Source: a virus
Virus record (IMG/VR): IMGVR_UViG_3300045988_175246
Strand: one strand, 5' to 3'
Length of the DNA: 64,000 nucleotides
The notes under the pieces are model-generated. The model saw nothing but the letters and a program-made list of their open reading frames with translations, did not search any database and was not told where the DNA came from. Shown here piece after piece: positions 7,901 to 59,521 of this stretch; position 1 is the first letter of the stretch; every line of letters begins with the position of its first letter. Made by a program: the position numbers and the translations under genes.

Positions 7901-8269
7901 ATGGTCGAAAAACCGAACACATCCCCGGCGAAGCTTCTGACCGCAGACGAGGCTTTGGCCTTGGGAAGACGACCGGAAGTCGTCAACGTCTTGAAAAACA
8001 AGCACGGATGGTGGATAATCTTCACCACCCAATTCCAAGACGAAGTGACCCTCCGCTACCTGCAAGGGGAACGCCCCTCGGAGATATTCCGCAGTCACAA
8101 TCTCGGGCCGGAAATCCTCGGATACAAGCGCATAGAACGTTGCATATACCGGTGGGTCAACCATCCCAGCAACACCCGTATCAGACGTTGGCAAGCGGAA
8201 CACCGCCTATATGAGACGTTGAACAACAAGCAAACCAATCCTGACAAGAAGGAGAACGGCGACAAGTGA
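7901..8269 (+). CDS. small HTH-like DNA-binding protein
   Basis: 122 aa; segment RYLQGERPSEIFRSHNLGPEILGYKRIERCIYRW resembles transposase-type/sigma-like HTH; sits between ParB-like and DnaB genes. Confidence 0.35.
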   Translation: MVEKPNTSPAKLLTADEALALGRRPEVVNVLKNKHGWWIIFTTQFQDEVTLRYLQGERPSEIFRSHNLGPEILGYKRIERCIYRWVNHPSNTRIRRWQAEHRLYETLNNKQTNPDKKENGDK

Positions 8270-9606
8270 GCGTCCCCACACCAATCCACAAGGACATGGC
8301 CGAACAAGTATTGTTGGGGGCCATGCTTCAAGACTCGGAAACGTTGGACAAGGTCATCAGCCAGCTTTCCGAAGAGGACTTCTACCAGCCGACCAACCAG
8401 ACCATCTTCCATAATATAAAGGAACTGGCCGCAGACAATAACCGTGTGGACGCGCAAATGCTGTCCTCGCACATGATGGACAACGGACAGTTGGAACAGG
8501 TCGGCGGCATCGACTACATCGCCCAGCTTGTCGGCTCCGCGCCCACGTCGAACAACAGTGACTATTTCATCAAGCAGATTCGTGACGCGGCCATCCTCCG
8601 CCACATCAACGTGGTCGGACAGCAGTTGCAACAGATGAGCAACGTATCCGACGCGTCAGCCGAAGACGTGCTCAGCAAATCGTTGGAGGCCGCGTTCTCG
8701 TTGGAGGATTCAAGCCGTTCCGAAGACGACGAGTTGAAGACCGCATACCGCCTGTCCGACGAAATGCTCCAACAGTTGGATGAAATGTCACAGAATCCGA
8801 ACGAGTTCGGAACACCCACCGGCTTCCGTGACATCGACGCGTTGACGCACGGATTGCAAGCCGGACAAATGGTCATAGTCGCGGGCCGTCCGGGCATGGG
8901 CAAGAGTACTCTCGGCATGGATTTCGCGCGTAACGCCGCACTGCACAAGGGTCTGCCGACTGTGATTTTCAGTCTGGAAATGGGCGGTCACGAACTCATG
9001 CAACGCATGTTCGCAGCCGAAACAGGCATCCGTCTCGCATCGTTCCAACATCCCGAGAATCTGAACTCGAATGATTGGAACAAACTCAACGCGCTTTGCC
9101 ATCAGGTCGAGAAGGCACCATTGTGGGTTGATGATTCCGCCATCATCAACATGAGCACCATCCGTGCGAAATGCCGTGCTCTCAGCCGCAAGGTCAACGG
9201 GTTGAAGCTTATCGTCATCGACTACCTGCAACTCATGTCCTCCGGTAAAACCGTCGAGAACCGTCAGCAGGAAGTGTCGAACTTCTCCCGCCAATGCAAA
9301 ATGCTCGCCAAGGAACTGCAATGCCCCGTGGTCGTGCTCTCCCAGTTGAACCGTAATGCGGAACAGCGTGCCGACAAGAAGCCGGAACTGTCCGACCTGC
9401 GAGAGTCCGGTTCCATCGAACAGGACGCCGACATGGTGTTTCTCGTGCATCGTCCCGAATACTACGACCGTGAGGAACGTCCGGGCGAAGCCGACGTGAT
9501 TCTCGCCAAACATCGTAACGGGCCTACCGAAACGTTCAATCTCGCGTTCATGGGCGAATGCTCCAAATTCGCGGACATGGCCGCAGGTTTCGAAAACGAG
9601 TTCTGA
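8266..9606 (+). CDS. dnaB: replicative DNA helicase DnaB
   Basis: DnaB N-terminal domain (VLLGAMLQDSETLDKV), Walker A AGRPGMGKST, Walker B LIVIDYLQLM, arginine-finger region SQLNR...LSDLRESGSIEQDADMV; GTG start overlapping the upstream stop. Confidence 0.9.
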   Translation: MSVPTPIHKDMAEQVLLGAMLQDSETLDKVISQLSEEDFYQPTNQTIFHNIKELAADNNRVDAQMLSSHMMDNGQLEQVGGIDYIAQLVGSAPTSNNSDYFIKQIRDAAILRHINVVGQQLQQMSNVSDASAEDVLSKSLEAAFSLEDSSRSEDDELKTAYRLSDEMLQQLDEMSQNPNEFGTPTGFRDIDALTHGLQAGQMVIVAGRPGMGKSTLGMDFARNAALHKGLPTVIFSLEMGGHELMQRMFAAETGIRLASFQHPENLNSNDWNKLNALCHQVEKAPLWVDDSAIINMSTIRAKCRALSRKVNGLKLIVIDYLQLMSSGKTVENRQQEVSNFSRQCKMLAKELQCPVVVLSQLNRNAEQRADKKPELSDLRESGSIEQDADMVFLVHRPEYYDREERPGEADVILAKHRNGPTETFNLAFMGECSKFADMAAGFENEF

Positions 9607-9656: not shown

Positions 9657-11054
9657 ATGCCAACAACATTGATAATCGTCGCGGCAGTGGCGATACTCAT
9701 CATCCTGCTCGCAACCGCAAGCTACAAGGTCTGCCCCGCCGACCGAGTCATGGTCATCACCGGGCCGGGTGGACGACGCTTCGTCTCCGGCGGAAGCGCG
9801 TTCATCATACCCTTCATCATGCGCGTGGACTGACTCTCCCTCGGAGCGGTGCAGTCGCTCCTGAGAACCGACACGCCGATTCCGACGAAGGACGCAATCC
9901 TCATCGACGTGAACGCCGTCGCCAACTTCCAAATCGCATCCGAGACCATGACCGTGGATGAGAACGGTAAACAGGTGAAGGCATTAGAAAACGCCGCCAA
10001 GAACTATCTGAACCAGTCAAAGGAGCGCATGGAGAAGGACGTGACCCAAGTGCTCCTAGGCAAGCTGCGCGAGGTCATCGGCAGGACCGAGTTGAAGGCA
10101 CTCATGGAGAACAGGGACACGTTCGCCGCGACCGTGGCCGAATCCGCCCGCGTGGACATGGAACGGCTTGGCCTTCAATTGACCACGTTCAACATTCAAG
10201 ACTTCACCGACCGTCAGAACGTCATCGCCAACATGGGCGCTGAAATGGCCGCCGAAATCAGCCGGAATGCGAAGCTCGCGTCCATCAACGCGGAACAGGA
10301 CGTGGCCGTCCGTCAGAACCAGCTCGACCTGAAACGAGCCGAACTCCAATCCATCTCCGACAAGGCGCAGGCCGAGGCCGACGCGGTGAAGGGCATCACC
10401 GCCGCCGAACAGTCCAAGACTCTCAAGGTCAAGGAGCAGGAGGCGGAAATCGCCGCCGCCGAAAAGAAGGCAGTCCTCGAACAGAAGAACGCCGAAATCG
10501 AAGAGCAGAAACTGAACGCGACCATCCGCAAGAAGGCCGACGCCGACAGATACGCCGCCGAACAGCAGGCCGACGCGCAAGTGTACACGACCCGCAAGCA
10601 TGCGGATGCGGAACTGTATCTACGCCAGCAGGAGGCTCAGGCCACCCAATCCACCGCCGACGCGGACGCGCACGCGACCGAAGTCAAAGGCAAGGCCGAG
10701 GGTTCCGCCGCACAGGCCAAGGGTGTAGGCGAAGCCGAGGCAATCCGCGCCCAAGGCCGAGCCTACAATGCGATGAACAACACGTACATCCTCGCCCAAC
10801 AGTACATTCAGATTCTCCCCGACATGGTTCGAGCCGCCGCCGAACCGCTCACCAAGGTTGACCACATCACCATGTATGGCGACGGAAACAGCACGAAGCT
10901 CGTGGGCGACACGGTGAACAGTGTGAGCCAGTTGAGCGAAGGCTTGTCGCAATCCTTGGGCATCGATTTGAAAGCGTTGCTGAACAGTATGGTGTCCGGT
11001 CATGCCGCCGGTTCCGCACTAAGTGGGAAAGGTTCCGAACAGTCCGGAAACTAA
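9657..11054 (+). pseudogene. flotillin/band-7 (SPFH) family gene interrupted by a single in-frame TGA at 9831-9833
   Basis: 9657..9830 encodes the TM helix + YKVCPADRVMVITGPGGRRFVSGGSAFIIPFIMRVD; after TGA the same frame continues LSLGAVQSLLRTDTPIPTKDAILIDVNAVANFQI... through the coiled-coil flotillin body (ORF 9849..11054 in the same frame). Confidence 0.7.
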
Positions 11055-11072: not shown

Positions 11073-11108
11073 GGAGGGTAGGGGAAGCCATGCCCTCCTT
11101 ATTTTTAA
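11073..11108 (+). terminator. rho-independent terminator after flotillin gene
   Basis: GGAGGG-tagggga agccatg-CCCTCC followed by TTATTTTT. Confidence 0.5.
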
Positions 11109-11233: not shown

Positions 11234-12937
11234 GTGAAAACCAAAAACCTGTTGAAGGCAACGGTCGCCACGCTTGTGGCCGGTGCCATGGGTTTGGCTG
11301 GAGTCGGCTCCGCCATGGCGGCTGATACTCGTGTTGACGAGTCCAAGCTTGGTGATGGTGCGGCTGCTCGTCAGACGTTGACCGTCGCTGCTAATGGTGA
11401 TATTAGCAATCGCACGTTGAAGGCTGTGCCGCTCGCCTACTATTCGTATGCGCAGACTGATGGCACTAATATTACCGGCTTTGACCTGATTGACGCGGGC
11501 AAGGCTTCTGCTATTGCTGACGCACTGACGAAAGCCCATATTGACACCCAGTCCAAGAAAGACCAGACTGCCGGATACCGATATAATGCGTCCAATCCGA
11601 TGGTGTGGGTCGTGCAGAATCTCCTTGATTCCGAGAACAGTCCGTGGGCTGGCAAGCTTCGTGACTTCATCGACCAGTTGAAGAACGAGGACGCCGTCAC
11701 CGGCGACAAGGGCACCGCGTTCGCCAAGGGCGCCGACGCCAAGCATATGACCGCATCCGTCCGTCCGGGCGTGTATGCGGTCGTGGACGCCACCAAGACC
11801 GGTCAGGCGTCCATCGTCATGTTCAACGGCACCGGCATCGACGGCAAGACCACGTTGAAGAACGGTGAAAAGACCTACACGCTGGGCACCGTGGACTATA
11901 AGGTGCATGACGCTGAAGTGACCAAGGGTATTACCGGTGTTGAGGATGGTGCTACGGATGAGAAAATCAGTAGGGAGAAGGAATACGCGGTAGCCAAGAC
12001 CTCCATCGGCAAGAAGGTCTCTTTCAAGATGACCAGCAAGGTGCCTGTTTGGACTGGCTACGACCACTACTATTATGCGCTCAACGATACGTATACTAAT
12101 GGCCTGACTTTCAACCCGGATAGTGTGAAGGTCACTGTCGGCGGTAAGGCTTTGACTGCTGGCAAGGATTACAAGGTGACGACCGAGACGGGCAAGTTCC
12201 ATATCCTGTTCGCCCCGACCGCTGACAATTCTTCCGACATCATCGCCGCCAAGACCACGTTCCCGGTCGGTACGCCCGTGCTTGTCACTTATGACATGAC
12301 CGTGAACAAGAACGCCCACGTGGACGGTGTTGACACCAACACGAGCGAAGTCGAATACTCCCACAATCCGAACAACGTCACCGACCATCAGAAGACTCCG
12401 GGCGACACCACTTACGTGTACGTCGGCAAGTTCACTCTGACCAAGACCGATACGAACAACGCTCCGCTCGCGGGTGCCATGTTCCACATCAAGGACGCCA
12501 AGAACAATATCGTCAAGTTCGTCAAGGTGAATGATAACGAGTATCGTGTCGCCGACTCGACTGAGGCCGCTACCGCAAGCGCCGACATCACCACCACCGA
12601 TAAGAACCATGGCGTCATCACCTTGAAGGGCCTGTACGGTGACTACACGGTGACCGAAACCAAGAGTCCGTTCGGTGGCAGCATTCTGCCGGAGTTCACT
12701 CTGACCGTTGGCGTGGCCCAGTCCCAAGACCATAACACCAGCACTTCGTCCCTCACCGCATTCGGACAAGATTCGAACAAGCTGGCCTCCAAGAGCAGTG
12801 ACGATGGAGTGACCGTCATCAACGCCCGCAACATCGCTGACATGCCGAAGACCGGTGCGGTCTGGCTGTCCATCTTCGGCGTGATGACCGTCCTGTTGGC
12901 TGGCGCTTCCGCCCTGCTGCTTCGTCGCAAGGCGTGA
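11234..12937 (+). CDS. sortase-dependent pilin / LPXTG-type surface protein (sorting motif MPKTG)
   Basis: Signal peptide MKTKNLLKATVATLVAGAMGLAGVGSAMAAD; E-box-like YTVTETKSPFGG; C-terminal MPKTG + hydrophobic helix + RRKA tail; GTG start. Confidence 0.8.
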   Translation: MKTKNLLKATVATLVAGAMGLAGVGSAMAADTRVDESKLGDGAAARQTLTVAANGDISNRTLKAVPLAYYSYAQTDGTNITGFDLIDAGKASAIADALTKAHIDTQSKKDQTAGYRYNASNPMVWVVQNLLDSENSPWAGKLRDFIDQLKNEDAVTGDKGTAFAKGADAKHMTASVRPGVYAVVDATKTGQASIVMFNGTGIDGKTTLKNGEKTYTLGTVDYKVHDAEVTKGITGVEDGATDEKISREKEYAVAKTSIGKKVSFKMTSKVPVWTGYDHYYYALNDTYTNGLTFNPDSVKVTVGGKALTAGKDYKVTTETGKFHILFAPTADNSSDIIAAKTTFPVGTPVLVTYDMTVNKNAHVDGVDTNTSEVEYSHNPNNVTDHQKTPGDTTYVYVGKFTLTKTDTNNAPLAGAMFHIKDAKNNIVKFVKVNDNEYRVADSTEAATASADITTTDKNHGVITLKGLYGDYTVTETKSPFGGSILPEFTLTVGVAQSQDHNTSTSSLTAFGQDSNKLASKSSDDGVTVINARNIADMPKTGAVWLSIFGVMTVLLAGASALLLRRKA

Positions 12938-13071
12938 GATTGGAGATTGGAATACTGCCGTATGAGAAAACTTTTCTGACCGTTTGACGGTTGGAAAAGC
13001 ATGAAATGTTCCGCTTGGCGTGTCGGGAACCCAAATATCGACACGCCACCTTTTAGATTCTTTATAACCGC

Positions 13072-13977
13072 ATGGGAGGGGTTTTGGGAAAACATACGGC
13101 GAAACCGAAAGGCTTGGGAAATCGAGCCATAGCGGGACTTCTCTGCCTAATCCTATCCGCCCTGTCCGGAACCATCCCATTCATTCTCATGATTTCGAAC
13201 AGCAGCCAATCCAACCGGTTGACCGACTCTCACGCGCAAGCCGTGGGAAACACTGACGTGAAACGAATCGCCCAAGAGTATGCGGACGCGCAAGCCTACA
13301 ATCAACGCCTATACGAGGAAGGCCAGCCTATTCTTGGTGAGGCGGAAGACCCTTGGACGGGCGTCAACAAGTCCGAATCGGACAACACGTATCGGAAGCA
13401 ACTATCCACCCCCAAGGATGGGGTCATGGCTACCATCAAATATCCACGCTTGGGCATCAACCTGCCCATCCGGCATGGCACGTCGCAAAACGTGTTGGCC
13501 GCTGGAGCCGGACACTTATATGGTTCCAGTCTCCCCGTCGGTGGCAAGAACACGCATACTGTCATATCCGCGCACACGGGTTTGGCCGACCAGCTCATGT
13601 TCGACAAGCTGCGAGGCTTCGGCAGTGAAGCCAAAAAGGGAGACGTCTTCTATCTGATAACCGCCGGACATATGCTCGCCTACAAGGTCACGGATATTAG
13701 CGTGGTAGACCCATCCGATTTCACCAAACTGAAAATCGTCGCCGGAAAAGACCTCGCCACACTTCTAACCTGCACGCCATACGGCATCAACAACAAGCGG
13801 CTCCTAGTGACCGGCACGCGCACCAGCATGCCGCACCCTGCACCCAGACCCGAAAACGCGCCGAAAGACCACACGAACCAATGGCTCATGCTGTACGTCG
13901 GCGGATTCTGGCTTGCGGTAATCATCATCACCATTCTCATCATCCGTAGAAAAAACCACGCAAAGAAGGAACACTAA
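13072..13977 (+). CDS. srtC: class C (pilus-associated) sortase
   Basis: N-terminal TM, VISAHTG histidine motif, TLLTCTPYG cysteine motif, C-terminal TM lid; stop overlaps start of next gene (TAATGA). Confidence 0.85.
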   Translation: MGGVLGKHTAKPKGLGNRAIAGLLCLILSALSGTIPFILMISNSSQSNRLTDSHAQAVGNTDVKRIAQEYADAQAYNQRLYEEGQPILGEAEDPWTGVNKSESDNTYRKQLSTPKDGVMATIKYPRLGINLPIRHGTSQNVLAAGAGHLYGSSLPVGGKNTHTVISAHTGLADQLMFDKLRGFGSEAKKGDVFYLITAGHMLAYKVTDISVVDPSDFTKLKIVAGKDLATLLTCTPYGINNKRLLVTGTRTSMPHPAPRPENAPKDHTNQWLMLYVGGFWLAVIIITILIIRRKNHAKKEH

Positions 13978-16900
13978 TGAGTATTCTCAAAAAGCATGTG
14001 GCACATCCGGTAGCATTATTGGCCGCAATCGCCACACTGGCATCCGGCCTGACATGCATGACCAATTCGGTAGCCTCTCCGAAAGCGCATGCGGACGAGT
14101 TGAAGCCCGCATATGCTACTGCGAAAATCGTTAAGAAAGCCGACGGTACGGGGCATGGCACGAGTTCGCAAACGTTCGTGAATTCGAAGAACGGGTTCGC
14201 CACGGGCGATGATTCCCCTACCGATGGCGTGGTCGCATCCGGTGATACGGTCGAATATTCTCTCACGTTGAACTTCAACGCGGCGGGCAAGCGTACCATC
14301 AACGTGAAGTTCGACTTGGATGACGCGCCGTATTTGCAGACTGCTGACGGTGGTGGCTTCTGCCAGCCGGGACAACTCGTCACCGCGAAGAAAAACAGTG
14401 ACGGCTCCTGCTCCTACACGGTTCCAGCCGGTGGCGTGGAAACCATGACCCAAACCTTCTATCTGAAAGCAAAAGACACGGGAGGCTTGGTCAAGCCGGG
14501 TCAGATTCCGAAAATCGTCGTCGCCCGCGAAGGTGGAACGTCAACCACGTATCGTACGGATGAGCTGACTGTAGTATCCGCTCCGGCGGCTGACTTGGTC
14601 ATTGACAATGGTGGCAATCCGGTGAAAGGTCAATACTCGTATGAGCATCGTACTTATTGGAGTCAGAACACCGATGCGACCGGCGATTTCACTATTCGTG
14701 CCGACGCGTTGACCTATCCGGGTTATTCGTCCACGAAGGGCGCGTCCACCAGCATCGATTGGACTACCAAAGTGGATATTTCCGACTTCCCGCAGGGCAC
14801 CGTGTGGACTGTAGGCGGTCAGCGGATTACCCGTAACAGTGATAAAGAACAGTATCTGACCGTATCCAGTGGCAAGAACGGTGCGGCGGTGACAATCAGC
14901 TACAGGATTCCCGCCGGAACCGACGCGCTCAAAAACATGAAAGAAGGAGACGTCAAATATTACGATGTCCACCTTGTTCCCGACGAAACCGTGTTCAGCG
15001 TCAAAGACGATAACGGCGACGCACTGTTGAACATGGGCAAAGGTGGAGAACCCGGCTGGAACATTGGACGGGACAAGAGCACCTACAACAAGGATACGGG
15101 TGCCCGCGTCGGCTACCCGTATGCGAACAATGACTGGTCACGAGCCATCATCCAACGGCTCAAGCCGACTCCAGCTGGCAAGATTCCACTGTTCGGCAAA
15201 GGACTGCAACGGCCTAACACTGCGTCCAAGACCATGTTCGACAAGGAGAATCTGACGTTCGACGCCGCCGAAGGCAAAGCCGACATCTACCATTACTATT
15301 CCGACGGTTCCGGCGACACCGTGTCCCGTGGAACGCAAGTCAAAACCATTTTGGAAATGTATGCGGCGAACGTTACGGCGGACAAGCTTAAAAACACTAC
15401 GCCGACCATGCAGGACGAGTGGGATAATACGCGCATGCGGTGGGATGGAAGCTTGGAAGTCACCCAGAACGGCGCTCCGGTTTCCGACTACAAAGTTCAA
15501 TGGGCTGATAGCAAAGACAATTGGCATGACGGGGAACCATCCGACACGGACGCTCCGAACGTCAAGAAGATTCGGGTGACGTTCAACCCCGACACTTTGA
15601 CTTTGGGAAAGGATGCGCCGAACGTTCAGGTCACGTTCAACACGCTCGCCATAGCCGACGTGTCCAAAGGCAATGTGGAAGCTTTGGATACGCTGACCGC
15701 ATGGCTTACCGAAGACGATAAGGCAAGCGTCACCAATTGGGTGTGGATTGCCAAGCCGGTAGACCCGACCACCAGTATCGACATCAGTCTGAAAGCCTAC
15801 GATGGTGAAGGCAATCAAGTGTATGCGAACAACAGTTCCAATCACCCGTCCGGAAGCGCAGTCGATTTGACTCCCGGCATGCGAGTGGATTATACGGTCA
15901 CGGAACAGTTGCGCACCATTCTCCTGTCCAATACAAGCATGACGCCGACCATCACGGTGCCGAAACCGAAAGGCTTGTACAATCCGACCTGTGATGATTC
16001 GTTCTGGCAGATGAAAGTGGACGGGAATAATCTCGTGTTCACGCCACGTTCCGGCAAAGTCACGCCGGAAGTAGACCGTATAGGGTCGGCCACTTTGCCT
16101 GACCTGCATTTCAGTGGCATCGTATCCAATCTCGCCACCGGGACTGTGACCGCCAGTGCGAATATGAGCGTGGACGTTGACGAGAACGGCGCATTGCAAG
16201 CCCAAACCATCAAAAGCAATACGCCCAGCGTCCCATTCCCTGTCTCCAATGCGGAAACCAACAGTGGCATCATGCGTGTGAAGACCACGAAGGCTGAAAT
16301 CAGTGACCCGCTTACTTGGGAGTTCAACGTGTACGGCAAGGGCGACGGCCATACCGGCACCATGGATAGCATGCTACTGCTTCCTGCGAATGGTGATGAG
16401 AAGTACGTGCAGGACAAGCTGGTCGAATATGAGCGTGGATACAGCAACTATCATGGCTCCTACGAACTGACCCAGCCCGTCACGGTCAATATGGACAATT
16501 CGACCAGTACGACCGTCTACTATTCAACCACCACCGGAAAGAAGTCGGATAATCCGGCTGACTACGAGTGGAAGACATGGGATGAATTGTCCGCCACCGA
16601 GAAGAAGAACATCACCGCCATCCGACTGACCAGCACTGTCGTCGCGTCCGACGATAAACTGTCCTATTCGGCGGTGAACGGCACCATCACGCTCACCCCA
16701 TCCGACAATGTGAAAGACGACAAGTACACGCTGTGGCTTGGTCGCAACTATTATTCCGACGCTTCCGACAAACCGGCGGGCAACCAGCCGTGGCCTGACG
16801 TGGCGAAGGTAGTGGCCGGTAGTATCAGCGGTACCGTCTGGTGGGATAAGGATGAGAACACGCTCATCGGAGACGGTGAGGAGCACATCGAAGGAGTGGA

Positions 16901-19367
16901 AGTCACCCTCGGCAAGCAGGATTCAAGCGGAGGCTGGCAGACCGTCAAAACGGTGAAGACTGACAAGGACGGCCATTACGAGTTCGACCTGCTCCACTCC
17001 GGCACCTACCGCACTTCGGTGAAACGCAACACTGGCACCAGTACGGGTGATGGCGTGCAGACGCAGGTCAAAACCTACTACAACAAGCTGGAAGACGTGG
17101 TGAACACGCGCAGCTGGTCGGACAAAATCAAGTCCAACGCGAAAGACACGTCCGACGACATCCACCTAGGCATCGGCGCAGACCAGAAGAACGTGGATTA
17201 CGGTTACGCGAAACCAGACCCGAAAGCCACCGTGGACAAAACCGTCACCGGCACCAGTTGCACTGATACGAAATGCGTTATCAACTGGGATGTCAAAGTA
17301 CAGAATTCTGGCACTAGTCGTTTTGACACGTCCAGTGTCGTTTCTGACCGTATGAGCGCTGATGTGCATGATGTTTCCGCTACCGCCGGTACGGTTTCCA
17401 TCGAGTCTGGTGGCGCGAAGCAGGTTGCGACGAGTGGCGACCATAAGTTTGTGTTGACGAGTGAGGGCTTGTTGTATGCGTGGGGTAACAACCAGTATGG
17501 TCAATTGGGTTTCAAGCCTGACTCCACGAACACGAGTACTCCGGTGAACGTGAACAAGCCGACCATCATCAACGGTAGTTGGCTGAAAGTCGCCGCCGGA
17601 GGCAAGCATTCCGCCGCCATCAGCACGGACGGACACTTGTATACGACTGGTTGGAATGGTAGCGGCCAATTGGGTACGGGTGATACGGATAATCGTGACC
17701 AGTGGACTCTAGTCGCAGAAGATAAGACGTTTGTTGACGTGGCGTGCGGCAACCAGTTCACTGTGGCGATAGCAAGTGACGGCACCTTGTGGGTGGTCGG
17801 AAAAGTCAGTTCCACCTCGTATTCAACGTGGACGCAAATCCAGTCGGGTAAGACGTTCACGCAGGTCAGCGCCAGCACGTACAGGTGGGTCGCGTTGACG
17901 TCCTACGGCGGTTGTGTGGTGGACGGCGACGAGTTTTTCTCTATTGGTTTCACGCAAGTTGTCGCCTCATTCGGCAACGCCTACGGGTTGACTGACGCGG
18001 GTACAGTGATAGTGCTCGTCGGCGGAGGTGATAGCGGTATCGACCAGTCCAATGTGTCTAATCTGAGGTACATCACCCGTATCGGTGGCGGATACAACAC
18101 TTTCTACGCCATCGACAAGAACCAACACTTGTGGGCGGCTGGCTGGAATGGTGACGGCCAATTAGCGAACGGTAAGACCGGTACAGGCAGGTATTGGACC
18201 AACGGCAGTACGAGCGGCAACGCGGATATTGTTTCCACGCCAATCGATACGGGCATTACCGCATCCGACGTTGCGGGCGGCGACCGTGACGTGCTCATTG
18301 TCGGCAAGCAGGTCATGATTGCGGGCTTCGACCCGTATGGTGACGGCAAGACGGGTGGCGCACGTTCCACCGGTTTGAAGGGAATGGTCGTATCGTCCGA
18401 CCCGACCGCCGTACCGGTCGAACCGTTGAGCGAGTCCACGGAGAAGGGGTTGACGACCCGCACGTACAATCTGCCGTATGCGATTGAGTCGGGCGGCTAT
18501 GTCATCTACCATTTCACTGGCACCGTTGACCGTGAAACTGCGGATACTACCAAGTGGTCTCCAACTGAGAAAGACGAGTGGGTCAAGAAGAATACGAAGA
18601 CCATTCTCAACCAAGCATGGTTCACCTCCGAACACACGCCATACTCAGGCACGCCACATGCAAGCGGCAAAACCAAGCCGGACCCTCCGAACGCATCCAA
18701 ACTGGATACGAACACGAATGACGTGACCGGCAATCCGACATGCCGCACCGACACCGACTATACGGAGGAAGGACACCAACACTGGTTCAGCACCAGCGAC
18801 GAAGACTCCTGCGACCAAGTCGGCACCATCATCACACCAACCACCAGCGCGAAGAAACTCGGCACCATCAGCGGCCTGTATTGGGAGGACACGGACAAGG
18901 ACGGTATTCGAAGCGACAACGAGTCGAACCGGTTCGCCAACCAGACCGTAATCCTGTACGACAAGAACGGCAAGCAGGTGGCATCCACCAAGACCGACAA
19001 GGACGGCAAGTACAAGTTCGAACACTTGGACGCGGACGGCGACCAGTACACCATCCAATTCAGCCGCGTCGCCCACCAAGAGTTCACCAAGCCGGATGCG
19101 AACGACATGGACATTCCGAATGACGCGAGTTCCACCGACTCCGACGCGAACACGAGCGACGACAAGTACGGTGAATCCACGTTCACCATCATCCTCACAC
19201 AGGATAAGCCGGACAAGGAGAATGTGGACGCGGGCGTCCTACCAGAAACATGGATGATGAGCATGCCCCACACCGGCATGGGCTTACTGTTGCCAATCCT
19301 CATACTCGTCAGCATTCTGGGACTCGTCACCGCAATCATCCTGTTGAGAAAGGAAGACCGTAAGTGA
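13977..19367 (+). CDS. large cell-wall-anchored adhesin (1796 aa) with RCC1-like beta-propeller repeats and Cna-B/SdrD-like domains; sorting motif MPHTG
   Basis: Signal peptide; RCC1-type repeats (LYAWGNNQYGQLG, HLYTTGWNGSGQLGTG, HLWAAGWNGDGQLANG) at ~17.4-18.2 kb; Cna-B-like GTVWWDKDENTLIGDGEEHIEGVEVTL and GLYWEDTDKDGIRSDNESNRFANQTVILYDKNGK; C-terminal MPHTG + TM + RKEDRK. Confidence 0.8.
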   Translation: MSILKKHVAHPVALLAAIATLASGLTCMTNSVASPKAHADELKPAYATAKIVKKADGTGHGTSSQTFVNSKNGFATGDDSPTDGVVASGDTVEYSLTLNFNAAGKRTINVKFDLDDAPYLQTADGGGFCQPGQLVTAKKNSDGSCSYTVPAGGVETMTQTFYLKAKDTGGLVKPGQIPKIVVAREGGTSTTYRTDELTVVSAPAADLVIDNGGNPVKGQYSYEHRTYWSQNTDATGDFTIRADALTYPGYSSTKGASTSIDWTTKVDISDFPQGTVWTVGGQRITRNSDKEQYLTVSSGKNGAAVTISYRIPAGTDALKNMKEGDVKYYDVHLVPDETVFSVKDDNGDALLNMGKGGEPGWNIGRDKSTYNKDTGARVGYPYANNDWSRAIIQRLKPTPAGKIPLFGKGLQRPNTASKTMFDKENLTFDAAEGKADIYHYYSDGSGDTVSRGTQVKTILEMYAANVTADKLKNTTPTMQDEWDNTRMRWDGSLEVTQNGAPVSDYKVQWADSKDNWHDGEPSDTDAPNVKKIRVTFNPDTLTLGKDAPNVQVTFNTLAIADVSKGNVEALDTLTAWLTEDDKASVTNWVWIAKPVDPTTSIDISLKAYDGEGNQVYANNSSNHPSGSAVDLTPGMRVDYTVTEQLRTILLSNTSMTPTITVPKPKGLYNPTCDDSFWQMKVDGNNLVFTPRSGKVTPEVDRIGSATLPDLHFSGIVSNLATGTVTASANMSVDVDENGALQAQTIKSNTPSVPFPVSNAETNSGIMRVKTTKAEISDPLTWEFNVYGKGDGHTGTMDSMLLLPANGDEKYVQDKLVEYERGYSNYHGSYELTQPVTVNMDNSTSTTVYYSTTTGKKSDNPADYEWKTWDELSATEKKNITAIRLTSTVVASDDKLSYSAVNGTITLTPSDNVKDDKYTLWLGRNYYSDASDKPAGNQPWPDVAKVVAGSISGTVWWDKDENTLIGDGEEHIEGVEVTLGKQDSSGGWQTVKTVKTDKDGHYEFDLLHSGTYRTSVKRNTGTSTGDGVQTQVKTYYNKLEDVVNTRSWSDKIKSNAKDTSDDIHLGIGADQKNVDYGYAKPDPKATVDKTVTGTSCTDTKCVINWDVKVQNSGTSRFDTSSVVSDRMSADVHDVSATAGTVSIESGGAKQVATSGDHKFVLTSEGLLYAWGNNQYGQLGFKPDSTNTSTPVNVNKPTIINGSWLKVAAGGKHSAAISTDGHLYTTGWNGSGQLGTGDTDNRDQWTLVAEDKTFVDVACGNQFTVAIASDGTLWVVGKVSSTSYSTWTQIQSGKTFTQVSASTYRWVALTSYGGCVVDGDEFFSIGFTQVVASFGNAYGLTDAGTVIVLVGGGDSGIDQSNVSNLRYITRIGGGYNTFYAIDKNQHLWAAGWNGDGQLANGKTGTGRYWTNGSTSGNADIVSTPIDTGITASDVAGGDRDVLIVGKQVMIAGFDPYGDGKTGGARSTGLKGMVVSSDPTAVPVEPLSESTEKGLTTRTYNLPYAIESGGYVIYHFTGTVDRETADTTKWSPTEKDEWVKKNTKTILNQAWFTSEHTPYSGTPHASGKTKPDPPNASKLDTNTNDVTGNPTCRTDTDYTEEGHQHWFSTSDEDSCDQVGTIITPTTSAKKLGTISGLYWEDTDKDGIRSDNESNRFANQTVILYDKNGKQVASTKTDKDGKYKFEHLDADGDQYTIQFSRVAHQEFTKPDANDMDIPNDASSTDSDANTSDDKYGESTFTIILTQDKPDKENVDAGVLPETWMMSMPHTGMGLLLPILILVSILGLVTAIILLRKEDRK

Positions 19368-19378
19368 AAGGAACAAAA

Positions 19379-20344
19379 ATGGGCATGCACGCCAGTAACC
19401 GTGTGAACCGCCACTTGGGACAACGAATCCTCGCCACCCTCGCCATCGTGGCGGCGGTCTGCGGCGGACTCATCACCGGTAGCGCCATCGCTTCGGAACC
19501 GGCCAAATGTTCGACCGGCGTGGACAAGGTCTGCTATGCGGGCTACAACGCCGCAGGATTGAAGCAGATTGCCGACGATTTGAGCGACAAGGGCAAGGGA
19601 AGCGCTTACTATGCGGAAATGGAGGATAATCTGACTAAGGGCACGCAAGGCTCGCTCACACTGTCGGACGGTTCCAATCTTCCATTCCGGCTCATCGGCA
19701 TCCTCCACGACGACAAGGCTGATGGTAGCGGCAAAAAGGCTGGCTTGACGTTCATGGCATGGAACGCGTTACCGAAAGCGTACTGCATAAACGGCGTCAT
19801 GCCAACCGACAACACGACCACCTGCACGAACGGCTACACCAACAAGGGCGGATGGCGCGACAGTAATCTCCGTCAATGGATGAACAATGGGGAAATCTGG
19901 AACCAATTCCCCACCGACTTCCAAAACAACGTGACCACCGTATTGAAACAAACCAACAACATGGACTACGGAAACACTTCCGGCTCCGCCGCATCCGCCA
20001 CAGCAGACAAGGTATGGCTCGTATCCTACAGGGAACTCGTACCAACCATATACGACGGGTGGAAAAGCTCTAATGGATTCCAAGCGTTAAGTCAGGAGGG
20101 AAGCCAATACGAGTATTTCCAAGGCAAGGTGATGCACAACTATTCAAACAATAATATTCTGTCTGGAATCTACGGAACCGTTTCCGGTTCAGCACTCTCC
20201 GGTGCCAACAGCCTCAGTTGGTGGGAGCGTTCGCCCGACCCGAGCTACAACTACGATTTCCTCCTAGTGTACTCGGGCGGCGACCCCAGCTGCGACTACT
20301 TTGCTGGCTATCGCTACTCCGTTGTCCCCGCTTTCTCCTTCTAA
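19379..20344 (+). CDS. DGR target (variable) protein, secreted; variable region at C-terminus
   Basis: Signal peptide (ILATLAIVAAVCGGLITGSAIAS); last ~50 codons are the VR homologous to the TR at 20965-21117; ORF track start 19364 (GTG), probable ATG 19379. Confidence 0.75.
   Translation: MGMHASNRVNRHLGQRILATLAIVAAVCGGLITGSAIASEPAKCSTGVDKVCYAGYNAAGLKQIADDLSDKGKGSAYYAEMEDNLTKGTQGSLTLSDGSNLPFRLIGILHDDKADGSGKKAGLTFMAWNALPKAYCINGVMPTDNTTTCTNGYTNKGGWRDSNLRQWMNNGEIWNQFPTDFQNNVTTVLKQTNNMDYGNTSGSAASATADKVWLVSYRELVPTIYDGWKSSNGFQALSQEGSQYEYFQGKVMHNYSNNNILSGIYGTVSGSALSGANSLSWWERSPDPSYNYDFLLVYSGGDPSCDYFAGYRYSVVPAFSF
20178..20330 (+). repeat. DGR variable region (VR)
   Basis: ~150 nt near-identical to 20965-21117; almost all mismatches fall where the TR has A (aac->agc/ctc/tac/gac/ggc etc.). 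Confidence 0.8.
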
Positions 20345-20357
20345 TCCCCCATCTTTA

Positions 20358-20379
20358 GGGGTGGGGTTCATCCCACCCC
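20358..20379 (+). promoter_or_regulatory. GC-rich hairpin immediately 3' of VR/stop codon (DGR homing-associated hairpin candidate)
   Basis: GGGGTGGG-gttcat-CCCACCCC, 8-bp perfect stem, 14 nt after the stop codon. Confidence 0.5.
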
Positions 20380-20450
20380 GCTAAAACATCACACGAAAGA
20401 AGCCCCTATGACAGTACCCACCAGCAAGCGGACAAAAGCAAAAAGCGAAT

Positions 20451-20930
20451 ATGCGAACCAAGCGAGAATCGTACTCTACGCCACCAGAAACCTCTTCCGG
20501 AAAATGGCCCAAAAGCCGAGACAACATCGAAACCATACACGTCATGCACATCGCCTACGACATGTACACAGCCGCCTACAGCGCCGACACCATCTACGCG
20601 AGCACCCTCGAAGAGCATAAGATGAAACTGCAACTCTTATGCAAGGCCCAAGGAATGCTGAACGCACTCTCCGGCCTCGTAGACGACTGGATAGACTATC
20701 CACCACGAGAACGCGACATGAAAGCCTACCAGAACAGTCAGGAAGGCGACCCCACCTACAATCCCGTAATCAAGGAGAAGAAATTTGTCAACTATGCGGG
20801 CACACTCTACAAAGCCATGGGGGTGTTCACGGGGGCAGTCCGATACGAGCGAGACCAGTTGAAGAAAGCCAAAACCGTCGAGTCAAAGACCACCACTAGA
20901 ATGGACACTTGGGTTCAACCCCAAATATAA
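20451..20930 (+). CDS. avd: Avd-like accessory variability determinant (helical bundle protein); possible frameshift near 5' end
   Basis: Located between VR and TR as in canonical DGRs; helical basic protein; an upstream overlapping frame (20408..) encodes a more Avd-like N-terminal helix (SEYANQARIVLYATRNLFRKMAQKPRQH). Confidence 0.55.
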   Translation: MRTKRESYSTPPETSSGKWPKSRDNIETIHVMHIAYDMYTAAYSADTIYASTLEEHKMKLQLLCKAQGMLNALSGLVDDWIDYPPRERDMKAYQNSQEGDPTYNPVIKEKKFVNYAGTLYKAMGVFTGAVRYERDQLKKAKTVESKTTTRMDTWVQPQI

Positions 20931-20964
20931 CTAAACAAAACCGGCCATATCCAAAATGGTGTTT

Positions 20965-21117
20965 CCGTTTCCGGTTCAGCACCCTCCGGTGCCAACAACA
21001 ACAATTGGTGGGAGCGTTCGCCCAACCCGAACAACAACAACAATTTCCTCCAAGTGAACTCGAACGGCGACCCCAGCTACAACAACAATGCTAACAATCG
21101 CTACTCCGTTGTCCCCG
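20965..21117 (+). repeat. DGR template region (TR)
   Basis: AAC/AAT-rich copy of the VR (ggtgccaacaacaacaattggtgggagcgttcgcccaacccgaacaacaacaacaat...); ORFs 20909..21094 and 21054..21239 over it are non-coding. Confidence 0.8.
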
Positions 21118-21311
21118 ATTCCTCTTACCAAAAACTAACATCAGATAGGCCAGTAGCCCAATGGGTGAAAGCCTCCCGAAGGGGAAGGGGATATGGTCGA
21201 ATGCGCTGCCCCTCGAAAAATGGGTTGCGCGTGAAATAGGTTGAGGGAGATATTAAGACTGTCGGAAACGACGGATACTCGCCCCTTAAGCTGGGCGTCC
21301 AACATCATTGC

Positions 21312-22541
21312 ATGTCTTGGGTTGTTGCCGACGACCTGCCCTCAACCATTCTTTTCTCTTTCCCTAGTGAAGGAAGCATTAAAATCGTGAATGCGAGTCA
21401 AAGACGTAGAAGACGCCAACGCAGACTGCAACAACGCTCGGATGATAAGTACAGGAAGCTCCACCGTTACATCGACTTCCAACAAACATTCGGATTCGAC
21501 GCGCTCTACCAAGCCGCAAGAAAATGCAAACGCGGCGTCACGTGGAAAAACACAGTGTTGAACTTCGACAATAGGCGTGCCGTCAACTGTTGGAAACTCG
21601 CCCAAGAATTAGAGGACGGCACATACAAGAAGAGAGCGCCAATCCGATTCGACATTTCCGAACGAGGCAAACTCCGCCACATCAGCGCGGTATCCTTCCG
21701 AGACCGGGTGGTGCAACGCGCCTTATGCGACAACAGTCTCGTCCCCATCGTGGAAAGCCAACTGATATACGATAATGCGGCAAGCCTACCGAAACGTGGA
21801 ACATCGTTCGCCCGAAAACGGTTCGAACTACACTATAAGCGGGCTTTGGGCAAATGGGAGCATCCGTATGCTGTCATCTTCGACTGTTCCAACTATTTCG
21901 GAAGTATCAGCTCCCAACGAGCGTTCGATATGATTTCCACCCTGTACCGGAGCATCGCCCGCACCGGACGGGAGAAGCAGGATGTGGAACGGATTCTAAC
22001 CGTATTGAGAATCTTCGTATTGGACGAACCACACTTAGGGTTAGGTAATCAGACGAGCCAAACCATGGCTATCTGGTATTTGAACAAGGTTGACCACTGG
22101 TGCATGTCGCAAGGATTCTACGGACGGTATATGGATGATGCCTACTGTTTCTGCGAGAATCGTGAACAGGCCGAACGTGTGTTGGCCGGTTATGAGCGGC
22201 GTGTCAACCAATTGGGATTGCGGTTGAACAAGCATAAGACCCGCATAGTGGACTGTCATACCGGTCAACTCACATTCCTGAAACGCGTATACAGTGTACA
22301 GGATGACGGCAGTATTCTTATCCGCATGCACCATAAGGCGTTGCGTGCAAGCCGACGGCATGCGTGTAACCTTATCTGCTCATATGATGGCGTGCATGTG
22401 GGATTGAGGACAGTTCAGGATTCTTGGACGAGCCATGAGAGCACACTGTCGGGTCTAACTCACCGTCGTGGACTGTGCGCTCGGGAGAAAGCGTGGTATC
22501 GGAGGCATTGTGAAATGCGGAAGCTGGCTTTTCACCCGTGA
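21312..22541 (+). CDS. DGR reverse transcriptase
   Basis: RT motifs: HISAVSFRDRVVQRAL, AVIFDCSNYFGSI, YGRYMDDAYCF (YMDD catalytic box), LNKHKTRIV. Confidence 0.85.
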   Translation: MSWVVADDLPSTILFSFPSEGSIKIVNASQRRRRRQRRLQQRSDDKYRKLHRYIDFQQTFGFDALYQAARKCKRGVTWKNTVLNFDNRRAVNCWKLAQELEDGTYKKRAPIRFDISERGKLRHISAVSFRDRVVQRALCDNSLVPIVESQLIYDNAASLPKRGTSFARKRFELHYKRALGKWEHPYAVIFDCSNYFGSISSQRAFDMISTLYRSIARTGREKQDVERILTVLRIFVLDEPHLGLGNQTSQTMAIWYLNKVDHWCMSQGFYGRYMDDAYCFCENREQAERVLAGYERRVNQLGLRLNKHKTRIVDCHTGQLTFLKRVYSVQDDGSILIRMHHKALRASRRHACNLICSYDGVHVGLRTVQDSWTSHESTLSGLTHRRGLCAREKAWYRRHCEMRKLAFHP

Positions 22542-46993: not shown

Positions 46994-47065
46994 TGTCGAA
47001 TAGGGGTCTGGGCTTACTTTTGTGTTCAGACCCCTGTTTCGTCTTTCATATCATTCCTGTCTTGT

Positions 47066-47088
47066 TATACTGGGGATGTTTGCAAATG
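47066..47088 (+). promoter_or_regulatory. conserved promoter/leader motif copy 20 (TATACTGGGGATGTTTGCAAATG)
   Basis: preceded by hairpin GGGTCTG...CAGACCC; first gene 47093. Confidence 0.4.
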
Positions 47089-47092
47089 CCGG

Positions 47093-47290
47093 ATGAAACA
47101 AAGAAGTGGCGAATTGAATATCTCCAACATGTCGGAAGAGACGATAGAAGAAAACCTACCCGACCTGTCCCCGCATTTAGAGGATGGGTTCAGTCTGAAA
47201 CAGCTTGAAACACTCCACGATTATGCCATGGAAGCTTTCAAGGCCGGAATCGAATACGCCAACAACAATCAAAAAGGAGCCACAAATTGA
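47093..47290 (+). CDS. hypothetical small acidic protein (65 aa)
   Basis: MKQRSGELNISNMSEETIEENLPDLSPHLEDGFSLKQLETLHDYAMEAF... Confidence 0.35.
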   Translation: MKQRSGELNISNMSEETIEENLPDLSPHLEDGFSLKQLETLHDYAMEAFKAGIEYANNNQKGATN

Positions 47291-59511: not shown

Positions 59512-59521
59512 GGCGGGTACA

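Follow-up and report, generated by a model that had tools for sequence, protein, structure and literature searches.

The region at positions 11,234 to 19,367 of the window (the whole 64,000-nucleotide stretch of DNA that was analyzed) raises the question of whether a mobile element encodes a pilus whose subunits carry methionine in place of leucine at the first position of the sorting signal and, if so, whether the sortase encoded beside them has a matching specificity. The three genes, all on the plus strand, encode a pilin, a class C sortase, and a large adhesin, and their open reading frames match those described in the initial annotation (Table 1). It seems probable that they form an operon for a sortase-assembled, two-component pilus; this judgment applies jointly to the operon, the assembly mechanism, and the reading of sortase residue Phe217 set out below.

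Gene organization of the locus and the element that carries it

A terminator-like hairpin ends the SPFH/Band_7 gene upstream of the locus, so the pilus genes constitute a separate transcription unit. The hairpin in the spacer between the pilin and sortase genes (−18.6 kcal/mol; z = −3.7) was equaled in folding by 0 of 200 shuffled sequences, and it is possible that it functions as an attenuator that fixes the ratio of pilin to sortase. The start codon of the adhesin gene overlaps the stop codon of the sortase gene. The start of the DUF6273 gene overlaps the stop of the adhesin gene, so these two genes are probably cotranscribed.

Table 1. Coordinates of features in and around the pilus locus
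Feature	Position	Strand	Basis or remark
Terminator-like hairpin	11073..11106	+	−17.8 kcal/mol, z = −2.05; followed by UUAUUUUU
Major (shaft) pilin, SpaA type, 567 aa	11234..12937	+	ORF, family models, PDB sequence matches
Pilin motif TVDYK, aa 219-223	11888..11902	+	K223 conserved in 98% of 44 aligned relatives
E-box YTVTETKSPFGG, aa 471-482	12644..12679	+	Glu475 invariant among aligned relatives
Pilin sorting motif MPKTG, aa 537-541	12842..12856	+	Followed by 22-residue hydrophobic stretch, RRKA
GC-rich hairpin, 11 bp	13016..13048	+	In 134-nt spacer between pilin and sortase; U-rich stretch after
Class C (pilus-polymerizing) sortase, 301 aa	13072..13977	+	Has VISAHTG, TLLTCTPYG
Phe217 codon, β6/β7 loop (PSDF217TKL)	13720..13722	+	17 residues ahead of catalytic Cys
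Adhesin, 1796 aa, probable pilus tip subunit	13977..19367	+	ORF, domain models
Seven-bladed RCC1-like β-propeller, aa ~1140-1468	17394..18380	+	Pfam, PDB sequence matches, blade parsing
Adhesin sorting motif MPHTG, aa 1763-1767	19263..19277	+	Followed by hydrophobic stretch, RKEDRK
DUF6273 gene, context outside pilus	19364..20344	+	3' end is DGR variable region (VR 20178-20344)

The element is a megaplasmid of Bifidobacterium adolescentis of about 220 kb, predicted to be conjugative, and a distant relative of pMP7017. The DnaB and lysozyme clusters bear B. adolescentis names, on contigs of 196 to 224 kb, and contig sizes cluster at 217 to 226 kb. The VirB4-like ATPase (AAA_10, 886 aa) is 66.5% identical to the pMP7017 ATPase over 99% of its length, and in both elements the ATPase gene is followed by those for a small membrane protein and a lysozyme, which bears out the conjugative setting that had been proposed from the sequence. 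A phage origin, prompted by the lysozyme and by PHROG matches, was set aside in favor of a conjugative plasmid. Neither PLSDB nor INPHARED gave a megablast match to the locus. The neighboring DGR, also part of the earlier description, is genuine, with 23 of 27 TR-to-VR mismatches at TR adenines. The adhesin cluster has more than 1000 member sequences, and contigs of ∼220 kb were found in many gut metagenomes; the operon is carried by a very common B. adolescentis megaplasmid.

Pilin, sortase, and methionine-first sorting signals

The pilin has a signal peptide with cleavage at about AMA/A (aa 29/30) and two Cna-B-like/SpaA domains, and it ends with its sorting signal (NIAD-MPKTG-AVWLSIFGVMTVLLAGASALLL-RRKA). 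It scored above the curated cut-offs of GramPos_pilinBB (PF16569; 68.3 versus 30.5), SpaA (PF17802; 36.7 versus 23.1), and TIGR04226 (58.6 versus 30), and the matching PDB sequences were RrgB-type and EbpB pilins. The pilin motif fits the bifidobacterial consensus TVxxK (PMC3231923, Table 2), and Lys223 is predicted to be the nucleophile that accepts the threonine of the preceding subunit. The E-box deviates from the consensus YxxxETxAPxGY (PMC3231923) at the last two consensus positions.

The sortase scored 222.7 bits with the class C model NF033745 (cut-off, 160) and far under the cut-offs of the class D, E, and GN models. It has a membrane segment at the N terminus, a DPW lid (aa 93 to 95), and a C-terminal membrane anchor (aa 271 to 294) followed by RRK. 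The catalytic residues His168, Cys234 (TLLTC), and Arg243 are invariant in the sortase alignment, and among solved structures the best match is to A. oris SrtC-1 (2XWG; E = 8e-48, continuous alignment). Model score, triad, lid, and anchor place the enzyme in class C, and pilin transpeptidation is its predicted activity.

As initially annotated, both substrates end in MPxTG, the adhesin with MMS-MPHTG-MGLLLPILILVSILGLVTAIILL-RKEDRK. When all six frames of the full 64-kb window were scanned for a motif followed by a hydrophobic stretch, a basic tail, and a stop codon, only two genuine sorting signals were recovered, both Met-first; in each, 22 to 23 hydrophobic residues and a basic tail (RRKA or RKEDRK) directly precede the stop. 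Neither substrate has the canonical L-P-x-T-G pentapeptide, methionine being at the first position, and the NCBIfam LPXTG-anchor models gave no match at E ≤ 0.01 in the pilin or the adhesin. Because such models overlook Met-first proteins, sortase substrates are under-counted in inventories of bifidobacterial surface proteins; the B. pseudolongum orthologue is annotated merely as an "isopeptide-forming fimbrial protein." In a literature search the only Met-first anchor found was the "MPQTG anchor" of L. paracasei CnbB, and matches to MPKTG were unrelated.

MPHTG was kept in 134 of 134 adhesin homologues (at least ∼82% identity), and MPKTG was found in 39 of ∼138 complete pilin representatives. 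In a pilin tree computed without the sorting signal, the clade of this pilin comprises 33 representatives (50% identity), of which 30 carry MPKTG and 3 carry LPKTG, and every outgroup has LPxTG. On the evidence of this tree, one pilin clade had MPKTG as its ancestral signal and has conserved it. The ATG codon is retained among relatives with just 35 to 47% identity, and also in the unrelated second substrates that those loci encode. The Met clade of pilins is represented in chromosomal, integrated-element, and plasmid sequences alike, and the specificity of MPxTG for this element that the initial annotation implied did not hold, given the chromosomal-looking or integrated contexts of B. pseudolongum (L010) and of loci L011, L097, and L099. 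Nor is MPxTG a host-wide standard, the other arrangement that had been considered: published bifidobacterial major pilins, including that of B. adolescentis ATCC 15703, have LPxTG (PMC3231923), and LPxTG-type signals were found at ∼55 further loci.

Covariation of the sorting signal with sortase residue 217

The main new result of our study is that sortase residue 217 covaries with the amino acid that opens the sorting signal. Each substrate was paired with a sortase solely by proximity, and in these neighborhood statistics the signals beside F217 sortases were Met-first in 13 cases and Leu-first in 1, versus 0 of 86 Met-first beside sortases with Thr, Ser, or Val at this position (the remaining class C sortases, recovered from metagenomes); as the F217 sortases are approximately one lineage, the contrast of 13 to 0 does not amount to 13 independent events, and about two independent reversions bear on causality. 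Within the "VISAH...D" sortase lineage, the T217 members L094, L095, and L096 have LPKTG pilins and, by the pilin tree, represent two independent switches. The RCC1 adhesins of L094 and L095, the only two that were readable, are also Leu-first (LPYTG and LPHAG).

Loci L011 and L097 are Met-type loci that adjoin Leu/Val-type loci, each with a separate sortase, and on the L013 contig an MPKTG pilin is accompanied by an AgI/II adhesin with LPMTG. Judged from these arrangements, the signal type follows the sortase rather than the genome. Unrelated second substrates beside F217 sortases were Met-first as well (MPHTG, MPQAG, MPTTG, MPLSG, and MPVTG), and L100, a short contig from which no sortase was recovered, has MPHSG together with an MPKTG pilin. 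Since MPHTG is invariant among the adhesin homologues and no signal beside the other class C sortases is Met-first, the methionine is not due to chance, and the constancy of MPHTG together with the pilin tree indicates that it is under selection.

A scan of genome contigs with the sortase yielded one locus only, L007, in which an F217 sortase is beside an LPKTG pilin. This pairing suggests that F217 enzymes probably take leucine too, so that specificity was broadened rather than switched. Phe217 is a candidate determinant for the acceptance of methionine at the first position; further lineage-specific positions (S166, A167, D178, L228, and L232) varied along with residue 217 in the large comparison. 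The covariation supports, short of proof, both a matched sortase specificity and the adhesin as a part of the pilus. The presumption of matching specificity in the initial annotation has thus gained comparative support. What makes a sortase select a given first signal residue is known chiefly from engineered S. aureus SrtA; the lineage described here is a natural one that apparently moved from leucine to methionine together with one loop residue, which is a precise and cheaply testable hypothesis.

In the assembly route that we propose, the pilin and the adhesin would be exported by Sec and retained in the membrane by the C-terminal hydrophobic segment and basic tail. The sortase (Cys234, His168, Arg243) would cut MPxTG between threonine and glycine, yielding an acyl-enzyme intermediate that would be resolved by Lys223 of the next pilin. 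If the adhesin, like tip subunits, is without a nucleophile lysine, it could only initiate a fiber, which would place it at the tip and display its N-terminal region and RCC1 propeller. Phe217, in place of Thr, Ser, or Val in the β6/β7 loop, most likely forms a pocket that accepts, and perhaps prefers, methionine. Sequence features, domain families, the conserved methionine, and its covariation with residue 217 are observed here, whereas we infer the polymerization chemistry, a tip location for the adhesin, a causal part for Phe217, and a function in adhesion/colonization or mating aggregation.

Methionine could instead be a neutral, conservative substitute for leucine that any sortase tolerates, spread by common descent or hitch-hiking with no change in specificity. 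S. aureus SrtA keeps some activity with methionine at the first position, and class C substrates that begin with I, V, F, or Y are known (pneumococcal RrgA/B/C). One base change suffices, leucine and methionine interchange within the clade (3 of 33 representatives, plus L007), and the MPQTG anchor of L. paracasei CnbB was listed without comment (PMC3716772). However, neutrality does not sit well with an ATG that persists at 35 to 47% identity and across unrelated second substrates, with the lack of drift to methionine at adjoining Leu-type loci of the same genomes (0 of 86), or with L094 and L095, where a Thr217 sortase goes with Leu-first signals in pilin and adhesin alike; we consider it somewhat unlikely. 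The last of these observations also bears on whether the 1796-aa protein is an independent wall-anchored adhesin that is attached by the housekeeping sortase and merely adjoins a pilin-sortase pair. Its size and SdrD_B/RCC1 architecture resemble those of stand-alone MSCRAMM-like proteins and bee-gut RCC1 surface proteins (PMC4449606), and the order pilin-sortase-adhesin is atypical, as bifidobacteria usually have the tip and major pilin genes adjacent on one side of the sortase gene. Yet the adhesin start overlaps the sortase stop, the pilin-sortase-adhesin trio is conserved in L011, L094, and L095, and the adhesin signal changes from methionine to leucine precisely in the loci with a T217 class C sortase, which is unexpected for the substrate of another enzyme. 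Independence of the adhesin is therefore improbable.

The covariation might also be taken further, to strict orthogonality, in which the sortase refuses LPxTG, host sortases refuse MPxTG, and the plasmid pilus is insulated from host pili. Met-type and Leu-type loci are found side by side with private sortases (L011 and L097), and the module moves on mobile elements, both of which speak for such insulation. However, the F217 sortase of L007 is encoded beside an LPKTG pilin, and strict orthogonality would block the housekeeping sortase, which is normally needed to anchor the finished pilus to the wall; we think this arrangement unlikely. It is similarly doubtful that F217 sortases and MPxTG are an evolved, largely orthogonal pair in which one β6/β7-loop residue sets the preference for leucine or methionine. 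If they were, a mobile element would build its own pilus free of cross-talk with host LPxTG pili, and an orthogonal sortase/tag pair would be ready-made for protein ligation.

The RCC1-like adhesin and comparison with other systems

The adhesin consists of a signal peptide, an N-terminal region of ∼910 aa, an SdrD_B/SpaA-like stalk (aa ∼950 to 1040), the propeller, an SdrD_B domain (aa 1634 to 1753), and the sorting signal. The assignments to RCC1, SdrD_B, SpaA, and class C sortase all exceeded curated thresholds, in support of the initial annotation. Scores were 158.9 bits for WD40_RLD (PF25390; cut-off, 150), 79.5 for RCC1 (PF00415), 82.4 for RCC1_2 (PF13540), 80.3 for SdrD_B in two stretches (PF17210; cut-off, 29.7), and 34.6 for SpaA (PF17802; cut-off, 23.1). 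Blades parsed by eye from the sequence were canonical (WG.N..GQLG) in positions 1, 2, and 6 and degenerate in positions 3 to 5 and 7. PDB sequence matches of the propeller were UVR8, HERC2, RPGR, and RCC1, with E values down to 2e-32 (UVR8/RCC1/HERC2), and the top Foldseek matches of its low-confidence AlphaFold2 model (mean pLDDT, 48) were all RCC1-like. Pfam searches at E ≤ 1 gave nothing usable for three segments of the N-terminal region over aa 41 to 960 or for the segments flanking the propeller, joined by a linker, and the AlphaFold2 model of aa 36 to 960 was unusable (mean pLDDT, 38; pTM, 0.25).

That RCC1 repeats are uncommon in wall-anchored adhesins, as first thought, was an overstatement, since each genome of bee-gut bifidobacteria encodes 7 to 24 RCC1 proteins with LPxTG anchors (PMC4449606), and loci L011, L094, and L095 have the pilin-sortase-RCC1-adhesin trio as well. 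The honeybee-gut proteins are likewise wall-anchored Bifidobacterium RCC1 propellers with marked strain-to-strain diversity; they have Flg_new repeats, two to four propellers, LPxTG, and tandem chromosomal arrays (PMC4449606), whereas this adhesin has a single propeller, SdrD_B stalks, MPHTG, and a place in a pilus operon.

Known actinobacterial pili include C. diphtheriae SpaA, A. oris FimP/FimA with SrtC-1/2, and the Bifidobacterium fimA/fimB/srtC loci (Foroni 2011, PMC3231923). They share with this locus a three-domain isopeptide pilin with TVxxK and an E-box, a class C sortase with a DPW lid and TLxTC, and a large second subunit. Unlike them, this locus is Met-first in both substrates, has Phe217 where they have Thr, Val, or Ser, is ordered pilin-sortase-adhesin, and has a probable tip protein with an RCC1 propeller rather than vWFA or Cna-A. 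FimM of B. longum BBMN68, whose role as an adhesin was demonstrated experimentally, is also a SpaH/EbpB-type pilin of ∼600 aa with xPKTG, an E-box, and an adjoining class C sortase, but it has LPKTG and a sortase pseudogene and does not polymerize (PMC7719627).

Megaplasmid pMP7017 of B. breve and related B. longum megaplasmids have a related conjugative backbone (VirB4-like ATPase 63 to 66% identical) and also bear a pilin, a giant adhesin, and a class C sortase. Their pilus locus is nonorthologous, with sortases 39 to 48% identical, no pilin homologue found by tblastn, the signals LPQTG, LPFTG, and LSDTG, and T217. Other plasmid-borne sortase pili that are likewise transferable adhesion modules include the SpaH/EbpB loci of C. 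perfringens on pCW3-like plasmids and the pilus plasmids of Enterococcus and Lactococcus; these are Firmicutes systems annotated as LPXTG-anchored, and we know of no Met-first lineage among them. Class C sortases were found on 605 plasmid records, and the PLSDB matches to the pilin were C. perfringens pilins only (∼30% identity). L. paracasei CnbB has a Met-first anchor, MPQTG, like the pair described here, but is a Cna-B collagen-binding protein of a Firmicute for which no dedicated sortase or specificity was discussed (PMC3716772).

The hot spot of population-level variation in the adhesin is propeller blades 3 to 6. Allelic hypervariation restricted to the RCC1 propeller is the pattern expected for a surface in contact with the host or with other cells. 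The DGR was rejected as its cause because the adhesin has no TR-like sequence and the sole VR is in the DUF6273 gene. A near-miss motif, LPETW (19239-19253), 8 aa upstream of MPHTG, was likewise rejected as the true sorting motif: 131 of the 134 homologues have LPETW, 2 have LSETW, and 1 has LPETG, whereas MPHTG is invariant.

The pilus operon and its sorting signals

Three genes in one orientation occupy window 11234-19367 and encode a SpaA-type major pilin, a class C sortase, and an adhesin, the ATG of which overlaps the stop codon of the sortase gene. The C-termini of both the pilin and the adhesin read M-P-x-T-G, followed by a hydrophobic segment and a basic tail, and no further such sorting signals were found in the whole 64-kb window. 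The observation in the initial annotation that both sortase substrates carry MPxTG instead of LPxTG is therefore confirmed in full, as is the adjoining class C sortase, which scored above its model cut-off.

Features of the window, with coordinates along the whole stretch
Feature	Coordinates	Remarks
DnaB-type replicative helicase	8266-9606	
SPFH/Band_7 (flotillin-like) protein	9849-11054	
Major pilin, SpaA-type	11234-12937	567 aa; PF16569 68.3 bits, PF17802 36.7, TIGR04226 58.6
Hairpin in pilin-sortase spacer	13016-13048	-18.6 kcal/mol, z = -3.7
Class C sortase	13072-13977	301 aa; NF033745 222.7 bits (cut-off 160)
Adhesin	13977-19367	1796 aa; SdrD_B, SpaA-like domain, RCC1-like propeller
Adhesin aa 36-950	14082-16826	
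Adhesin aa 1251-1450 (blades 3-6)	17727-18326	
LPETW in adhesin	19239-19253	
Complete DGR	19364-22541	
DUF6273 target gene	19364-20344	VR at 3' end
VR	20178-20344	
Possible Avd ORF	20451-20930	
TR	20965-21131	
Reverse transcriptase	21312-22541	
TnpB/IS605 OrfB-family protein	31936-33378 (-)	Cas12f1-like TNB domain
RNA ligase, then ATP-grasp R2K-family protein	45938-48285	Ligase phage-type, PHROG 968, E = 1e-46
Conjugation-type trio, Gram-positive	56012-61858	886-aa AAA_10 (VirB4-like) ATPase, 280-aa small membrane protein, 778-aa peptidoglycan hydrolase

In an alignment of 44 relatives, Lys223 of the pilin was 98% conserved, and the sequence in which it lies, TVDYK, fits TVxxK, the pilin motif published for bifidobacteria (PMC3231923, Table 2). 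Glu475 of the E-box (YTVTETKSPFGG) was invariant, and Lys404/Asn530 and Lys231/Asn369/Asp285, also conserved, are likely, we infer, to be intramolecular isopeptide residues. The sortase has a DPW lid (aa 93-95), His168, Cys234, Arg243, and a C-terminal membrane anchor, and the solved structure that matches it best is A. oris SrtC-1 (2XWG; E = 8e-48). A terminator-like hairpin lies 5' of the operon, and the stable hairpin in the pilin-sortase spacer is a candidate attenuator that may set the stoichiometry of subunit to enzyme. The genes immediately upstream of the operon encode the helicase and the flotillin-like protein.

Distribution of the Met-first signal

MPxTG is neither specific to the element nor the standard of its host. 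All tabulated bifidobacterial major pilins are LPxTG proteins, including that of B. adolescentis ATCC 15703 (LPLTGA) (PMC3231923). A sortase alignment was used to retrieve 80 metagenomic loci, and among these MPxTG was present only at the three loci with a sortase at least 66% identical to that of the window; the remaining ∼55 unique loci had LPLTG, LPKTG, LPMTG, and similar motifs. The pilus locus of B. breve pMP7017 itself has LPQTG, LPFTG, and LSDTG signals. Thus, the possibility of a host-wide MPxTG standard, raised in the initial annotation, did not hold.

The specificity to the element that was implied instead fared no better. A full HMMER scan with the pilin over 1.8 billion representatives yielded ∼138 complete pilin C-termini, 39 of them MPKTG and 1 MPATG. 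In a neighbour-joining pilin tree from which the sorting signal was left out, MPKTG pilins fell in a single clade, whose 33 representatives comprise 30 MPKTG and 3 LPKTG pilins, with LPxTG in all outgroups. This clade spans chromosomal-looking regions (adjoining a TPP enzyme at locus L011, FTHFS and a C69 peptidase at L097, and ClpB at L099), a B. pseudolongum region flanked by an integrase and IS elements (L010; GCA_004155305.1, WP_129966811.1), and a contig with a type IV secretion system (L007). All three genes, for pilin, sortase, and RCC1 adhesin, are found together again in L011 (adhesin identity, 60%), L094, and L095. A literature search found no paper on MPXTG, the sole relevant mention being an 'MPQTG anchor' in L. 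paracasei, and Met-first sortase substrates are probably under-annotated.

Correspondence between sortase and signal

Four lines of evidence support the proposal that the sortase is matched to its signal. The signal goes with the locus, not with the genome: in L011 an MPKTG/MPHTG locus directly adjoins one with LPLTG on both substrates, and the two have separate sortases; in L097 MPLSG/MPKTG adjoins VPSTG/LPSTG; and on the L013 contig a pilin ends in MPKTG and an AgI/II adhesin in LPMTG. Unrelated second substrates beside these sortases are Met-first as well, namely the RCC1 adhesin (MPHTG), a 1371-aa SdrD_B protein (MPQAG), a small SpaA protein (MPTTG), a 1568-aa SpaA protein (MPLSG), and an FctA/DUF285 protein (MPVTG). 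An MPHSG protein accompanies an MPKTG pilin on a short contig from which no sortase was recovered (L100). The sortases of Met-type loci cluster apart from Leu-type sortases, and fixed in their lineage are, among others, S166/A167 (beside the catalytic His), D178, L228, L232, and F217.

The fourth line of evidence is that residue 217 (window sortase numbering) varies with the signal. This β6/β7-loop position, 17 residues N-terminal to the catalytic Cys, presumably corresponds to the part of the S. aureus SrtA loop (Val166-Leu169) where, in the SrtA-LPAT structure, the Leu of LPXTG is contacted. Signals were paired with sortases solely by proximity, with the nearest one on the same strand and no more than 9 kb away, and each unique sortase sequence was counted once. 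Phe217 sortases neighboured 13 Met signals and 1 Leu; Thr217 sortases, 61 Leu, 2 Ile, a spurious Lys-first match, and no Met; Ser217 sortases, 6 Leu; and Val217 sortases, 13 Leu, 1 Ile, and 2 Val. The 13:0 contrast is mostly inherited and not independent, because the F217 sortases are one lineage. Three loci with sortases of the Met-type lineage have Thr217, as in ordinary sortases, together with an LPKTG pilin; the adhesin signal, readable in two, is LPYTG (L094) or LPHAG (L095). In the pilin tree the Leu cases within the Met clade represent two independent reversions. The motif of the L094 adhesin is SM-LPYTG, which looks like the insertion of a Leu codon behind the old Met and not like a substitution.

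However, the matching specificity expected in the initial annotation is probably not exclusive: F217 enzymes probably accept both Met and Leu, because in L007 an F217 sortase is paired with an LPKTG pilin and a second protein on the contig ends in MPNTG. A candidate orthogonal sortase/tag pair set by Phe217 is the strongest further reading, and we consider it unlikely. Met-type (F217) and Leu/Val-type (S217 or V217) pilus loci adjoin in L011 (1038-15096) and L097 (3153-16700); these paired loci offer a natural test of whether sortase systems cross-talk.

The covariation makes the adhesin most likely a pilus subunit: were it handled by the housekeeping sortase, nothing would tie changes in its signal to changes in the class C sortase. 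Given how large it is and where it lies, it is the probable pilus tip. The system is of an ordinary kind, a predicted sortase-assembled pilus on a conjugative plasmid. Its one unusual and apparently undescribed feature is the Met-first signal, which marks out a pilin/sortase lineage and varies together with one residue of a sortase loop.

The adhesin propeller and the element

Domain searches bore out the stalk and propeller calls in the adhesin: SdrD_B scored 80.3 bits over two stretches, PF25390 158.9 (cut-off 150), RCC1 79.5, and RCC1_2 82.4. PDB matches of the propeller were UVR8/HERC2/RCC1 (E down to 2e-32), seven blades were made out by eye within aa ∼1140 to ∼1468, and Foldseek with a low-confidence AlphaFold2 model (mean pLDDT, 48) returned RCC1-like propellers only. 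The description of this fold as uncommon in wall-anchored adhesins was overstated, since bee-gut bifidobacteria have 7 to 24 LPxTG-anchored RCC1-repeat proteins per genome (PMC4449606) and the RCC1 adhesin recurs as a partner of the window pilin's family.

The first ∼910 mature residues (aa 36-950) had no Pfam or PDB sequence match and gave no usable AlphaFold2 model (pLDDT, 38). This region, likely the ligand-binding head, hardly varies within the population, and its L011 counterpart is about 75% identical. Among 112 full-length homologues, identity was 97 to 100%, mostly 99 to 100%, over the first ∼950 residues and 46 to 81% over aa 1251-1450, with the minimum at aa 1301-1350. Population-level hypervariation is confined to blades 3-6, where loops have indels and alleles fall into at least five discrete types, suggesting that the propeller face is under diversifying selection or allele exchange. 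The DGR is ruled out as the source, because the adhesin is without any TR-like sequence. The sequence LPETW, a near miss to a sorting motif, precedes MPHTG by 8 aa; 1 of 134 homologues has LPETG.

The DGR reported beside the pilus locus is complete, and 23 of 27 TR-to-VR mismatches are at TR adenines. Its DUF6273 target gene is probably in the pilus operon, because its start overlaps the adhesin stop codon; the product has no sorting signal. The gene is called at 516 aa in locus L004 and at 357 aa in L005.

The conjugative setting also stood. The VirB4-like ATPase shares 66.5% identity with its pMP7017 counterpart and about 63% with the ATPases of B. longum megaplasmids, and these plasmids have the local gene order of the trio in common with the window (B7017_RS00550-00560 in pMP7017). 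The hydrolase has Amidase_5/NlpC, phage-tail lysozyme, glucosaminidase, and CHAP domains, and the 280-aa protein matched no family. NCBI names in the DnaB and hydrolase clusters are Bifidobacterium adolescentis, on contigs of 196 to 224 kb. The trio, the ATPase identity and gene order, and these names together identify the element, on sequence grounds, as a megaplasmid of B. adolescentis and a distant relative of pMP7017. No nucleotide match was found in PLSDB and no description in the searchable literature. For the adhesin there are more than 100 cluster representatives (89 to 97% identity), its own 90% cluster has 1067 member sequences, and metagenomic contigs carrying them pile up at 217 to 226 kb; the element of ∼217 to 226 kb to which the window belongs is very common in gut metagenomes. 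The window encodes a TnpB protein, copies of which pMP7017 likewise has, and the RNA ligase gene with the ATP-grasp R2K gene after it is unusual plasmid cargo.
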